DNA of 64,000 nt from an uncultured Clostridia bacterium (GTDB taxonomy: Bacteria; Bacillota; Clostridia; TANB77; CAG-465), in contig CANPWO010000002.1 of assembly GCA_947584535.1 (NCBI GenBank), forward strand, positions 12,784 through 76,783, read 5' to 3'. The translations under genes and the position numbers were made by a program. Numbering within the stretch: position 1 is the stretch's first letter; each line of letters begins with the position of its first letter. Under the pieces are notes generated by a model, which saw nothing but the letters and a program-made list of their open reading frames with translations, was not told the origin of the DNA and did not search any database. Positions 44,483 through 47,456 of the stretch are shown here, piece after piece.

Positions 44483-44530
44483 AAAAAAAGTTAAGCTAAA
44501 TACTTCAAAAATATTTAGCTTAACTTTTTT
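44483..44530 (-). terminator. Strong rho-independent terminator after the IleRS-like gene
   Basis: 14-bp perfect stem agttaagctaaata / tatttagcttaact flanked by an A-run and a T-run. It overlaps the stop codon. Confidence 0.8.
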
Positions 44531-47456
44531 ATTTTCCTTCTTGTTGTTCTAGTATATCAGCACATTTTGGGCATAAGTATCTATATTTCAAATTCTTACC
44601 TATTTCGTTTGTATAACGCAAACATCTAACACATTGTGTACCAGGTTCTTTTTCAATTCTTACATCCGGATTATCAGATACATTAGCTTCTATACTAGAA
44701 ATATACACACTTTCAACAATATCATCATAATTATCTTCAACAAATTTTTTAGTATAGCTATTAGTATCTAAGATTAATTTAATTTCAGAAGTATGTTTAA
44801 CAATTTTATTTTTCTGTGCAAGTTTTATTTTAACATCTAATTTTTCCTTTACAGCAAATATTTTTTTCCATCTTAATATATCTTCTTTTTCAGTTTCTTG
44901 TATATTTTTAACAATAAGTTCATTACTATATACAATTCTATCTTCTTCTGCAGATTTATGATATATAAGTGGCCAAATTTCTTCTATTGTAAATGGTATT
45001 ATAGAATACCATAGCCCGCATAAAGTCATTATTATATCATACATATTAGATTGTATACTTCTTCTTTTTTTATCATCTGCATTCAACATATATAACTTAT
45101 ATTTAATTGATTCAAAGTATAATTTACAAAGTATTTCTTCTCCATATCTTGTAAGTAAAGTATATATTTTATTAAATTCTAAGTTTTGATAAGCTTCCTT
45201 TACTTTTTCAGTAACTATATACAACTCGTTATATACATATTTATCTATACCATTTCTATCATTAACTTCGACATAGTTTTTAGCAGGATGGAAGTCATAT
45301 AAATTAGAAAGTATAAATTTAAATGCTTTTCTTATATTTTTATATTTTTTATTTATATTTATAAGAGTTTGTTTATTTAATGTAATTCTTTCTTTATTTG
45401 AAAAATATGCAGCCCAAAGCCTTAATATATCTGTACCATAATTACTTACTGTATCTGTAACTCCTTTTTCCATTTCAATATTAGGTGCCTTAGATTTCCC
45501 TTTAAATAAATTTGAAAGGAAATTACCTTTTTTAACATTTTGTTCTTTTTTCTCCTCTACTTCATCTTTAACTACAGGTACATCTAATTTTTCTTTTACA
45601 TTAGAATGCATAAGTACTTTATCAAAATTATTAATATTCTCATTAGTATTGTCAGCGAAACTTAAAGCTTTAAGGCTATCTATAAACTCATCTTTACATT
45701 CAATTACAACATTAGAGACCTCTTTTTCCTTTTTAATCTCATCCATTTGATTTATATTTATACATATATATTCAAAGAATTTATTTAATGTAGCATTTTC
45801 TTTAAATAAAAATGTACAGCCACAATTTCTACAAACAACTTGTCCTTGAAGTATTTCTTCTGGAGTCTGTTTATACCATGCGTCACTTCCCTTTGTTTTT
45901 ATCATATTACAAAGTATATCTACCGATTTATCATTAATAATATCAGCACCACAATCAGCACAATAAAACACTGGTATTGGTGTTCCCAATATACTTTTAT
46001 CTGATATAAGAGTTTCACAAATATTATTTATCTTTACTATACCATTAGGTAATTCTTCTTTTTTATATTTTTCATTTGCACTAATTTTAGGAATCAAATT
46101 ATTTACTGTTTCATCTTGTATTTTTTCGTCGTCTTTCTTTACTGCATACCAATCATTTATAACTCTATATATAATCTTTTCTTCACAGTTTTTACAAAAA
46201 GGTATCATTATATTTGTTTTTTGTATAGTATAAATAAAATTTGATTCTTTTAAATAATCAATAATTGCATTATTTATCTCATGATAATTCATATTTTGAT
46301 AAACTAAAGTTGAATTATTAGTAACACCAACTTCATTAATTACACTTCTAATTTCATCTTTTTTTGTATCTTTTAATATCAAATAGTCCATATATGTATG
46401 ACCAGATGAAACTATTCTTACACCTGTAGAATCATTACTAGAATAAGTTACTTTATCTTTTTGAGTTAAAATTATACTTACCCTTTTTCTATAATCAAGA
46501 GGATTCATACATTGAATATCTTTTAATTCTTCTGCCTTAAATTTTCTCTTTACTTCATATTTAGTATAAAATTCTTTTTGCATTAAATCAGACACATAAT
46601 CTGAAGCTACAATATAATAAACTTTTTTACCTAGCTTTTCTATTTCAACAATTGAATATTCTAAATCACTTGCAATAGCTATATTTTGACTTGATACCAT
46701 AAGCCATGGCTCTATTGTACTTGCAACAAAATAGATATTTTCTAAACTTTTAAATGCAGATAACTTTCCTCTATCATCTTCAACTCTATACATTACATAG
46801 TAATTGTCAACTGTTGTTTTTTTATAATTAATGTCATGTTTACTTTTTGCAGTACCACATTTAGTACACCAACGAGTAGATTTAATTTTTTTCTTTAATC
46901 TATCTTGTTTATATAATTCATAAAATTTTTTAATAAGGTCTATTTCAAAATCTGTTTTTACAGTTGTTACAGTATTTTTATCATAGTTTATTGTACTTCC
47001 TAAATGATTTATAGCAACAATTTGAGATTTAAACATATTAGATAATTCTTTTCTTTTCTGTTGTCTTGTTTTAAATAATTCTTGTAATTTAGCTTTATCA
47101 CTTGGTAAATTATATATTTGTTCCATATTTTCAGAACTAGTAAAAATTAGTTCATGTTCTATAGTATCTTTAAACATCATCTTACTTTTAACAACAAAAT
47201 CTTTTAGTATCTTATTTAGTATAACTGTAGATGATAGTCTATTCTCTATATCAGTAGGCATTTCAACAATTCTATATTTTTTACCACCATTCTTTAAATT
47301 TTTACTTGTTACAAATTGATACTTTTTTAAATCTTGTATTTTATCTAAAATATAATCTTCTTTTTTAACTTGATTTCCCTTTATAGCTATTACTTGTCTA
47401 GGTAAATTAAGGGTTTTATCAAATTCTGTTTTGTTATTAACTTTCATTTCTTTCAC
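44529..47456 (-). CDS. Isoleucyl-tRNA-synthetase-like paralog with degenerate catalytic motifs
   Basis: Colinear with IleRS (TLNLP, LNKILKDFVV, WCTKCGTA, IPVFYCADCG, YGTDILRLW, C-terminal CxxC...CxxC). The HIGH position reads RLSSTV, the GWDTHG region reads IFTSSE, and KMSKS reads KGKSK. Confidence 0.75.
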   Translation of the reverse strand: MKEMKVNNKTEFDKTLNLPRQVIAIKGNQVKKEDYILDKIQDLKKYQFVTSKNLKNGGKKYRIVEMPTDIENRLSSTVILNKILKDFVVKSKMMFKDTIEHELIFTSSENMEQIYNLPSDKAKLQELFKTRQQKRKELSNMFKSQIVAINHLGSTINYDKNTVTTVKTDFEIDLIKKFYELYKQDRLKKKIKSTRWCTKCGTAKSKHDINYKKTTVDNYYVMYRVEDDRGKLSAFKSLENIYFVASTIEPWLMVSSQNIAIASDLEYSIVEIEKLGKKVYYIVASDYVSDLMQKEFYTKYEVKRKFKAEELKDIQCMNPLDYRKRVSIILTQKDKVTYSSNDSTGVRIVSSGHTYMDYLILKDTKKDEIRSVINEVGVTNNSTLVYQNMNYHEINNAIIDYLKESNFIYTIQKTNIMIPFCKNCEEKIIYRVINDWYAVKKDDEKIQDETVNNLIPKISANEKYKKEELPNGIVKINNICETLISDKSILGTPIPVFYCADCGADIINDKSVDILCNMIKTKGSDAWYKQTPEEILQGQVVCRNCGCTFLFKENATLNKFFEYICININQMDEIKKEKEVSNVVIECKDEFIDSLKALSFADNTNENINNFDKVLMHSNVKEKLDVPVVKDEVEEKKEQNVKKGNFLSNLFKGKSKAPNIEMEKGVTDTVSNYGTDILRLWAAYFSNKERITLNKQTLININKKYKNIRKAFKFILSNLYDFHPAKNYVEVNDRNGIDKYVYNELYIVTEKVKEAYQNLEFNKIYTLLTRYGEEILCKLYFESIKYKLYMLNADDKKRRSIQSNMYDIIMTLCGLWYSIIPFTIEEIWPLIYHKSAEEDRIVYSNELIVKNIQETEKEDILRWKKIFAVKEKLDVKIKLAQKNKIVKHTSEIKLILDTNSYTKKFVEDNYDDIVESVYISSIEANVSDNPDVRIEKEPGTQCVRCLRYTNEIGKNLKYRYLCPKCADILEQQEGK

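Follow-up and report, generated by a model that had tools for sequence, protein, structure and literature searches.

SLIMP is a full-length paralog of an aminoacyl-tRNA synthetase (aaRS) that has lost aminoacylation and is kept for another role; HisZ, a HisRS-like regulatory subunit of ATP phosphoribosyltransferase, has the fold of the catalytic domain without aminoacylation; and AlaX, YbaK/ProX, and ThrRS-ed derive from synthetases and act on tRNA but do not aminoacylate it. A second isoleucyl-tRNA synthetase (IleRS) is said to exist in Bacilli, where ileS1 and ileS2 form a pair. IleRS is regarded as among the most stable synthetases, with few paralogs (PMC5388404). Its types are defined by the C-terminus, type 1 by a zinc domain, and in a survey of about 96,000 IleRS the HIGH motif was near-absolutely conserved in those with a type-1 catalytic domain, with no mention of inactive members (bioRxiv 10.64898/2026.02.03.703510). 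We analysed a stretch of 64,000 nucleotides (the window) from contig CANPWO010000002.1 of an uncultured Clostridia bacterium of the order TANB77 (assembly GCA_947584535.1), which encodes an IleRS-like protein hereafter called the pseudo-IleRS. As judged from its sequence, it is a pseudo-synthetase, combining aaRS homology, loss of catalytic residues, and purifying selection; pseudo-synthetases are grouped by function and do not form one homologous family. No description of such a family was found in the literature on IleRS paralogs, pseudoenzyme synthetases, and TANB77, or in two large surveys of aaRS and IleRS.

Homology of the window protein to IleRS is far beyond chance, as matches to solved IleRS1 structures reached E = 7e-65 (Priestia megaterium, 8C9E); the match to S. 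aureus IleRS reached 6.5e-55, and matches to IleRS2 structures were much weaker (E about 5e-13). Identity to canonical IleRS1 was only about 25%, the Pfam matches were weak (tRNA-synt_1, 56 bits; Anticodon_1, 60 bits), and the score against TIGR00392, the ileS equivalog of NCBIfam, was 256.5 bits, below the cutoff of 621.4 for a functional IleRS. With IleRS1 (P. megaterium 8C9E; S. aureus 1QU2/1FFY) the pseudo-IleRS shares domain order and fold, the zinc cysteines, and many signatures of the anticodon domain; unlike IleRS1, it lacks the class I motifs, most editing residues, the wobble-reading Trp, and a T-box, and it has a disordered insert at the KMSKS loop. It would resemble IleRS2, MupA, and MupB, second genes retained for antibiotic resistance, in being a second IleRS-family gene beside a housekeeping one (PMC5388404). 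Those enzymes, however, are active, have HIGH or [A/G]IHH as well as KMSKS, and end in a type-2 C-terminus without the zinc domain; the pseudo-IleRS is not of this type, having the zinc domain but neither a HIGH variant nor the ARD3-type C-terminus. SLIMP, for its part, is a class II, eukaryotic, mitochondrial protein that acts with protein partners and is not homologous to the pseudo-IleRS. HisZ has no anticodon-binding domain and no tRNA-binding role and is encoded with its partner pathway, whereas the pseudo-IleRS has the full tRNA-docking architecture and no partner gene linked to it. AlaX, YbaK/ProX, and ThrRS-ed are isolated editing domains with intact catalytic residues; the pseudo-IleRS is full-length and has lost 83% of the editing signatures.

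The original prediction, made by a model from the DNA letters without database searches, named several strings typical of IleRS (TLNLP, LNKILKDFVV, YGTDILRLW, and CVRC...CPKC), and all are present in the translation. It was equally right that HIGH, GWDTHGLPIE, and ISRQR are lost: in alignments to canonical IleRS1 their places are taken by SSTV, IFTSSENMEQ, and ISDKSILG (the last for ISRQRxWG), and no family member checked has a His at either position of the HIGH motif. Two further motifs, in the second Rossmann half, are replaced as well (Table 1). The loss of KMSKS was also read correctly, with a Lys/Glu-rich insert in its place that differs in length and sequence between family members; the local KGKSK, proposed as its counterpart, is not conserved in relatives and so does not represent a displaced KMSKS. 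The prediction had allowed that careful alignment might uncover displaced motifs, but a search of the vicinity by regular expression and alignment found no equivalent of HIGH or KMSKS. In the editing domain, the T-rich peptide WTTTPWT..N has become ASTIEPW..S, where an S243-T244 remnant with one Thr and the PW is kept and the Asn is lost. Ile replaces the His of GTGxVH in the window protein, and GHG is variable; the Asp of GHGxxD persists as Asp354, invariant in most family members and Glu in the deepest branches. These replacements indicate that the aminoacylation site is erased and the editing site mostly gone.

The erasure is a property of a family. A word-indexed search yielded 28 clusters with identities of 35-98% and scores of 623-2108 bits; below them, scores fell to <=323 bits for canonical IleRS, which are ~25% identical. 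Overall, identity within the family spans 30-98%. When 1.84 billion representatives were searched exhaustively with HMMER, the family came out as about 14 clusters at 50% identity (P0001, P0023, P0014, and P0283-P0293), with canonical enzymes from 530 bits downward, and motif checks confirmed this boundary. When one genome per species was scanned, the pseudo-IleRS was found in 27, all metagenome-assembled genomes (MAGs) of uncultured Clostridia, Clostridium, or Bacillota from gut or environmental sources; they include Clostridium sp. CAG:465 and CAG:1219 and have 22-29% GC around the gene. The motifs are missing at every one of these 27 loci and in the roughly 14 representative clusters, and the next-best loci (L027 onward) encode ordinary IleRS1 with all motifs. 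Among the matches listed in a scan of Joint Genome Institute (JGI) metagenomes only canonical IleRS occurred, which has no bearing on the family. No relatives were found on viral contigs, and a phage or mobile origin was set aside on that ground.

Complete copies all have intact open reading frames (ORFs) of 897-1011 aa; of the 27 loci, two are interrupted and two are cut by the end of the contig. Intact ORFs were likewise present in hundreds of metagenome contigs. Pairwise ratios of non-synonymous to synonymous substitution rates (dN/dS) were 0.07-0.21, with values of 0.094 (L025/L026), 0.136 (L016/L018), and 0.113 (window/L001) for the least saturated pairs; canonical IleRS1 from comparable contigs gave 0.08-0.25. 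Ratios so like those of canonical IleRS imply that the pseudo-IleRS is maintained by selection, and purifying selection across species is the conclusion we draw from them.

Within the family, P0286 (1323 aa) and P0288 (1306 aa) have an extra C-terminal tail of ~330 aa that looks disordered, K/E-rich in one and N/D-rich in the other; the tails contain no Pfam domain but share the terminal peptide KLGMFEDSFRD, and look like a tethered short linear motif for a partner. Apparently independent of the family are four other IleRS1-like proteins in which the signatures are partly lost: P0294 combines intact WFDSG and DQxRGWF with TLGH, a degenerate editing site, and the absence of KMSKS; in P0303 the synthetic site is dead and the editing site intact; in P0314 hardly any signature is left; and P0330 lacks KMSKS. 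Degenerate IleRS-like proteins may thus extend beyond the pseudo-IleRS family.

Retention was measured on columns >=90% conserved in 78 canonical IleRS1, a column being counted as kept if it was present in >=80% of the family. It was 38% in the N-terminal Rossmann half (chiefly TLNLP and NKxLKD), 17% in the CP1/editing domain, 15% (3/20 columns) in the FRATxQWF-ISRQR segment between editing domain and zinc insert (aa 421-480), 65% in the zinc insert around PIPVFYC...CxxC (aa 481-550), 8% (2/26 columns) in the second Rossmann half, 51% (21/41 columns) in the helical anticodon domains, and 39% in the C-terminal region that includes the zinc domain. Both active sites are thus gone, and retention is highest in those parts with which IleRS grips the body and anticodon of the tRNA. 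One segment of the zinc insert, with the family form WYKQTPEEILQGQVxCxKCGCTFLFKE, is more conserved in the family than in real enzymes. In the anticodon domain the signatures YGTDILRLW, YKNIRKAFKF, IKYKLY, KKRRSIQS, and PFTIEEIW remain; the RRSxQ(S/T) helix is retained in the family, and E. coli R734, which lies in this peptide, is an anticodon determinant. All six CxxC zinc pairs are invariant, three zinc sites are retained, and C939, C942, C959, and C962 form the four-Cys treble-clef zinc domain of a type-1 C-terminus.

Structure prediction agreed with this picture. An AlphaFold2 model from a mixed alignment of canonical and family sequences had a mean predicted local distance difference test score (pLDDT) of 89 and a predicted template modelling score (pTM) of 0.83; a control from the family alignment only had a pLDDT of 86, a pTM of 0.79, and the same layout of secondary structure. 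For both models the best structural matches were P. megaterium IleRS1 and the S. aureus IleRS-tRNA complex 1QU2 (template modelling score 0.67-0.75), followed by IleRS2, ValRS, and LeuRS. Pfam and the models gave the domain order of IleRS1: Rossmann core, CP1, zinc insert, and helical anticodon domains. Only one long stretch was disordered, the insert that takes the place of KMSKS (aa 621-651 in the protein of 972 aa; 624-657 in the 975 aa model). The complete architecture and fold of a bacterial type-1 IleRS are thus predicted to be retained.

Family members are basic (net charge +7..+29, pI 8.3-9.0; pI 8.7 for the window protein), as against -19..-25 and a pI of about 5.5 in canonical low-GC IleRS1. 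A further change concerns the residue that reads the wobble base. In S. aureus IleRS, the zinc-domain residues R888-C889-W890 adjoin position 34 of the tRNA, and it is the Trp that stacks on the wobble base. Bacteria with tilS conserve this Trp (W890 in S. aureus, W905 in E. coli), mycoplasmas whose tRNA carries an unmodified UAU anticodon have Arg, Lys, or Leu in its place, and the change W905R gives E. coli IleRS a gain of activity on the UAU anticodon (PMC3575796). The Trp was lost in all 31 pseudo-IleRS family members checked, the window protein having Leu (L943), whereas canonical low-GC IleRS1 had CERCW with the Trp in 120 of the 120 retrieved. The residues found in 24 genome-locus copies were His (6), Arg (5), Lys (5), Gly (4), Asn (2), Leu (1), and Gln (1). 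The mycoplasmal enzymes are changed at the same position but are active (PMC3575796); the pseudo-IleRS is catalytically dead and its replacements are not uniform. Next to this position the family has a zinc-domain motif of its own, IGK[DN]LKYRYLCPxC. In the window, of about 25% GC, Ile makes up 9.9% of all codons (32 ORFs), with AUA at 59%, AUU at 38%, and AUC at 3% of Ile codons; at such a share of AUA, the AUA-reading tRNA must be a major species in this organism.

Canonical IleRS1 genes are common in genomes of similar composition. A search with the IleRS1 of a related rabbit-gut MAG of 29% GC (L039) returned 120 variants of 73-100% identity and 915-925 aa, and those in the motif check all had HIGH, KMSKS, WFDSG, DQxRGWF, and a complete editing site. 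On Clostridia contigs of 27-30% GC these genes lie in the context (tig-clpP-)clpX-...-ileS-CNNM-mntP, and T-box leaders precede them, scoring 97 bits in both L039 and L094 and 76-78 bits (E about 1e-15) in L082, L089, and L096. By BLAST, these low-GC IleRS1 and the enzymes of Caloranaerobacter and Thermohalobacter are the closest canonical relatives of the pseudo-IleRS, and an origin by duplication of a Clostridia-type ileS1 fits, with the caveat that shared composition may inflate the signal. The commonest canonical variants occurred on 71 and 53 contigs, the commonest pseudo-gene variants on 74 and 55. Because Ile-tRNA(Ile) is universally needed and T-box-led canonical genes occur on similar contigs, we infer that the carriers also have a working ileS elsewhere. 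An ABC ATPase near canonical ileS (L089) and one near the pseudo-gene (L009) are 72% identical over 104 aa, which is suggestive of related genomes and no more. The best canonical match of the first search, P0029, was rejected as the carrier's ileS: it lies on a contig of 36.6% GC outside the relevant lineage, in the context mutL-miaA-sepF-divIVA-ileS-lspA, and tblastn matches of its flanking genes were mostly to loci named Oscillospiraceae.

The original prediction of a full-length IleRS-derived pseudo-synthetase kept for a non-catalytic role gains support from the family-wide absence of the motifs, the purifying selection, the retained fold, and the solitary position of the gene without a T-box. 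Its list of possible roles can be narrowed: binding of tRNA or RNA is favoured, and immunity of the mupirocin type is disfavoured by the loss of the adenylate-pocket residues. We consider, with a probability of roughly 0.55, that the pseudo-IleRS is a non-catalytic protein binding RNA of the tRNA(Ile) type on the frame of IleRS1. On this reading, a descendant of a Clostridia-type IleRS1 lost its aminoacylation and editing sites and kept the whole scaffold, and as a stand-alone protein it would dock tRNA(Ile)-like RNA as IleRS does, without charging it. The docking surface would have been re-tuned, the protein becoming basic, a flexible Lys/Glu-rich segment standing in for the KMSKS loop, and the wobble-reading Trp being replaced while the rest of the zinc domain gained a conserved motif specific to the family. 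Its physiological role could be to buffer, chaperone, or sense a tRNA(Ile) species in genomes where AUA dominates among Ile codons.

Several observations weigh against binding of tRNA(Ile). Half or more of the canonical-invariant columns are gone even in the anticodon-binding and zinc domains; the non-uniform replacements of the wobble Trp argue against one strict readout of the anticodon; and the basic pI could stem in part from AT-driven enrichment of Lys under relaxed constraint. No gene for tRNA(Ile), tilS, or any other tRNA-handling or tRNA-modification gene was linked to the pseudo-IleRS in any of 28 loci. The interrupted copies in two MAGs, a frameshift in L005 and an in-frame stop in L010, are either assembly errors or a sign of dispensability. 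Finally, canonical ileS and the pseudo-gene were never placed in one MAG, sample, or contig when the canonical variants were looked up: seven canonical low-GC variants (in ULJA, CAYBQV, CANQAB, JBANSI, CABRRR/ULTW, and CASPMA) were in none of the 27 pseudo-gene assemblies, and canonical ileS had no sample in common with the 10 places of the pseudo variant P0138.

A bolder form of the same idea, which we put forward only tentatively, is that the pseudo-IleRS serves specifically to read, without catalysis, a tRNA(Ile) species not accepted by real IleRS; candidates are the unmodified C34 precursor of tRNA(Ile2) and a tRNA with the UAU anticodon. It is suggested by the replaced wobble Trp, the new zinc-domain motif, the reversal of charge, and the kept anticodon helices, and where AUA is the dominant Ile codon such a reader could keep the tRNA from MetRS, pass it to the wobble-modifying enzyme, or report its level. 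Some of the same features can be turned the other way. The best-conserved segments are specific to the family (aa 524-550; IGK[DN]LKYRYLCPxC) and the wobble reader is lost, so it is possible, though we would not expect it, that the protein no longer recognises tRNA(Ile) and serves as a scaffold or regulator for another RNA or a protein partner through the zinc insert and the remodelled zinc domain. The disordered tails of P0286 and P0288, ending in KLGMFEDSFRD, resemble a tether for a partner, and the pseudo-synthetases HisZ and SLIMP act through protein partners. However, no conserved neighbour suggests a partner, and the persistence of YGxDxLRLW, YxxIRxxxxF, IKxxLY, RRSxQ, and FTxEExW would be hard to explain without tRNA binding. 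A role in trans-editing or other handling of aminoacyl-tRNA(Ile) is unlikely. In such a protein the dead core would position the tRNA while CP1 binds, and perhaps hydrolyses, the aminoacyl group at the 3'-end; CP1 is present in full and its models are highly confident, the T-rich peptide still has one Thr with the PW after it, and Asp354 (Glu in the deepest branches) persists, corresponding to the Asp by which class Ia editing sites fix the amino group of the substrate. P0303, with its dead synthetic site and intact editing site, shows that such a design exists. Yet only 10 of the 58 canonical-invariant columns of CP1 survive, GTGxVH lacks its His and the T-rich peptide its Asn, GHG is variable, and the canonical IleRS1 of similar genomes have a complete editing site, so the need for a second editor is doubtful.

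Duplicated IleRS genes are classically tied to antibiotic self-protection (PMC5388404), and the putative promoter of the pseudo-IleRS gene is its own and independent of Ile supply; a decoy or immunity protein that soaks up a toxin, phage factor, or inhibitor aimed at IleRS or tRNA(Ile) could be expected to look so. We nevertheless regard this as quite improbable, given that the residues of the adenylate and mupirocin pockets are all replaced, that no biosynthetic, toxin, or defence genes are linked, that viral contigs yielded no relative, and that a stable chromosomal position and low dN/dS are unlike an arms-race gene. That the protein is the sole IleRS of these genomes, still aminoacylating tRNA(Ile) through non-canonical residues, is very unlikely. 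It would account for the failure to place canonical ileS in a pseudo-gene MAG and for the name isoleucine--tRNA ligase in the sources, but no class of residue known to bind ATP, Ile, or the transition state is left, what has taken their place is not conserved, and T-box-led canonical IleRS1 are abundant in the same GC range and gene style, with contig counts similar to those of the pseudo-gene. An enzyme of this kind would also sit badly with the near-absolute conservation of HIGH among about 96,000 IleRS (bioRxiv 10.64898/2026.02.03.703510). Least credible of all is a decaying relic, that is, a pseudogene in progress, or an assembly artefact: the interrupted copies of L005 and L010 would be expected of one, whereas intact ORFs in all complete copies, dN/dS of 0.07-0.21, and a confident fold prediction from family sequences alone contradict decay.

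The signals around the pseudo-IleRS gene are consistent with independent transcription. The original prediction gave a product of 975 aa (44529-47456), which on the (-) strand begins at GTG 47456. We revise this: the true start is most likely ATG 47447 (MKVNNK...), with GTG 47456 belonging to the ribosome-binding site, because AAAGGTGA sits 5 nt upstream of this ATG and all homologues begin with MKI or MKV. The promoter-like site TTGAAT-17-TGgTATAAT had the top score in the 5.6 kb scanned, with 10/12 consensus matches plus the TG; terminator-like sites numbered 4 in the scan against 0.7 expected in shuffles, and the downstream 595 aa gene has its own, separate promoter-like site. Together, promoter-like site, terminator, and separate downstream site make the pseudo-IleRS a unit of its own, and the gene is probably monocistronic, as had been predicted. 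The predicted absence of a T-box leader also held: no T-box or other Rfam family was found in the window at curated thresholds or around the pseudo-IleRS at E<=1, and the 279-nt spacer upstream folds only slightly better than shuffles (z = -1.9). With its own putative promoter and terminator and without a T-box, the gene is most likely uncoupled from Ile supply and constitutively transcribed. The spacer between the giant gene and the promoter also contains a locally G+C-richer stretch, GGCAGGGGAACGGCAAGAGUCAAGCGGAUGAAAUCCUGCGUACGC, at 47700-47790 (-), and a perfect 15-bp hairpin at 47570-47603 (-), neither with an Rfam match.

In about 16 of 28 loci the gene closes a conserved order of sensor kinase, LytTR regulator, yqfD, ybeY, dgkA, cdd, DUF3298, and pseudo-IleRS, and in relatives a D-Ala-D-Ala carboxypeptidase gene and a Tad/Flp-type pilus cluster often lie 3' of it. 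On deeper branches the pseudo-IleRS adjoins dnaX-ybaB-recR, or sits between rsgA-rpe-DUF362 and scpB-addB. Only in the window are the DUF3298 gene and the pseudo-IleRS, neighbours in relatives, separated by a gene for a 2714 aa pilin-like protein; the region of this gene is richer in GC (about 30%) and its AT skew is strongly negative. Homologues of the 595 aa gene were found only in the window, L002 (two tandem copies), and L005, and with a presence in 3 of 28 loci it was rejected as a conserved partner; the upstream DUF3298 gene was rejected because it belongs to a housekeeping block. No neighbour of the pseudo-IleRS points to a partner, and the window contains no tRNA genes.

Elsewhere in the window, the layout of the pilus cluster resembles that of a cluster described as conserved in the uncultured gut order TANB77 (PMC11680825), which hints at the lineage of the window. 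In the window cluster, the assembly genes are followed by a series of pilin-like proteins, some small and some large, and by a secreted protein of 1467 aa that has no Pfam match. An ATPase of the AAA_14 + DUF4143 type, of which the window has four, also adjoins the pseudo-IleRS in L011 and L093 and canonical ileS in L094; these ATPases may mark variable spots of the genomes. Two pairs of overlapping ORFs, one encoding 305 aa (NAD_binding_8/amine-oxidase-like) and 263 aa and the other a 193 aa membrane protein and 330 aa, look like single genes split by frameshifts.

Table 1. Features of the pseudo-IleRS gene, its product, and its surroundings; positions refer to the window unless another contig is named.
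Feature	Position	Strand	Basis or remark
Pseudo-IleRS coding sequence	44529..47447	(-)	972 aa from ATG 47447; ORF/translation, IleRS homology, homologue starts
Stop codon TAA of pseudo-IleRS	44531-44529	(-)	
Ribosome-binding site AAAGGTGA	47453..47460	(-)	read directly; 5 nt 5' of ATG 47447, overlaps GTG 47456
Promoter-like site, sigma-70 type, TTGAAT-17-TGgTATAAT (extended -10)	47472..47500	(-)	consensus match only
Intrinsic-terminator-like hairpin, 20-pair stem then T run	44484..44530	(-)	begins inside pseudo-IleRS stop codon
Former HIGH position, now S72-S-T-V75	47223..47234	(-)	alignments to canonical IleRS1
Former GWDTHGLPIE (amino-acid/adenylate binding), now IFTSSENMEQ	47118..47147	(-)	alignment
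CP1 hinge and editing-domain homologue, aa 196-420	46188..46862	(-)	fold kept; 10/58 canonical >=90%-conserved columns retained
Zinc-insert motif WYKQTPEEILQGQVVCRNCGCTFLFKE, aa 524-550	45798..45878	(-)	conservation 0.80 in family, 0.60 in real IleRS
Former WFDSG (now KFFEYI) and EGxDQxRGWF (now IECKDEFIDSL), second Rossmann half	45672..45782	(-)	alignment
K/E-rich disordered insert in place of KMSKS loop, aa 621-651	45495..45587	(-)	pLDDT <50 in both models
Anticodon-binding helical domains, aa 652-850	44898..45494	(-)	Pfam Anticodon_1, 60 bits
C-terminal zinc-binding domain, C939-x2-C942...C959-x2-C962	44562..44633	(-)	cysteines invariant; L943 at E. coli W905 position
Giant gene, 2714 aa	47839-55983	(-)	pilin-like N-terminus MKKRNNGISLLVLIITIIVMIILA, seven Big_2 repeats, FN3-like domains
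595 aa gene downstream of pseudo-IleRS	42608-44395	(-)	no Pfam match; own promoter-like site
Tad/Flp-type pilus cluster	about 14355-34791	(-)	SAF/CpaB-like, two ParA/TadZ-like, CpaF-like ATPase, TadB/C-like membrane protein
Two overlapping-ORF pairs	35127-36774 and 36707-38228	(-)	
Four paralogous AAA_14 + DUF4143 ATPase genes	3905-5197, 11263-12558, 39649-40947, 62691-63890		
rve integrase fragment	10030-10596		
Interruption in L005 (contig CANRQA010000012.1)	about 1160-1170		frameshift, near codon 62-67
Interruption in L010 (contig CAZZFS010000021.1)	about 10184-10186		in-frame stop at conserved Glu, near codon 62-67

A practical consequence concerns annotation. Database sources label family members isoleucine--tRNA ligase, so that genome-based metabolic or marker-gene inference for this lineage can mistake an inactive gene for ileS. 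For the biology of the organisms, the finding is that a whole lineage of common uncultured gut Clostridia keeps a full-length copy of IleRS with its active sites erased and its tRNA-docking frame intact. If the protein does bind tRNA(Ile), it would be a natural experiment to reveal which portions of a class Ia enzyme are enough to recognise a tRNA. Should it prove to be a reader of a special tRNA(Ile), it would mark the first case of a bacterial class Ia synthetase becoming a tRNA-specific binding factor. Binding of tRNA(Ile) would also mean a new layer of tRNA handling in extremely AT-rich genomes.

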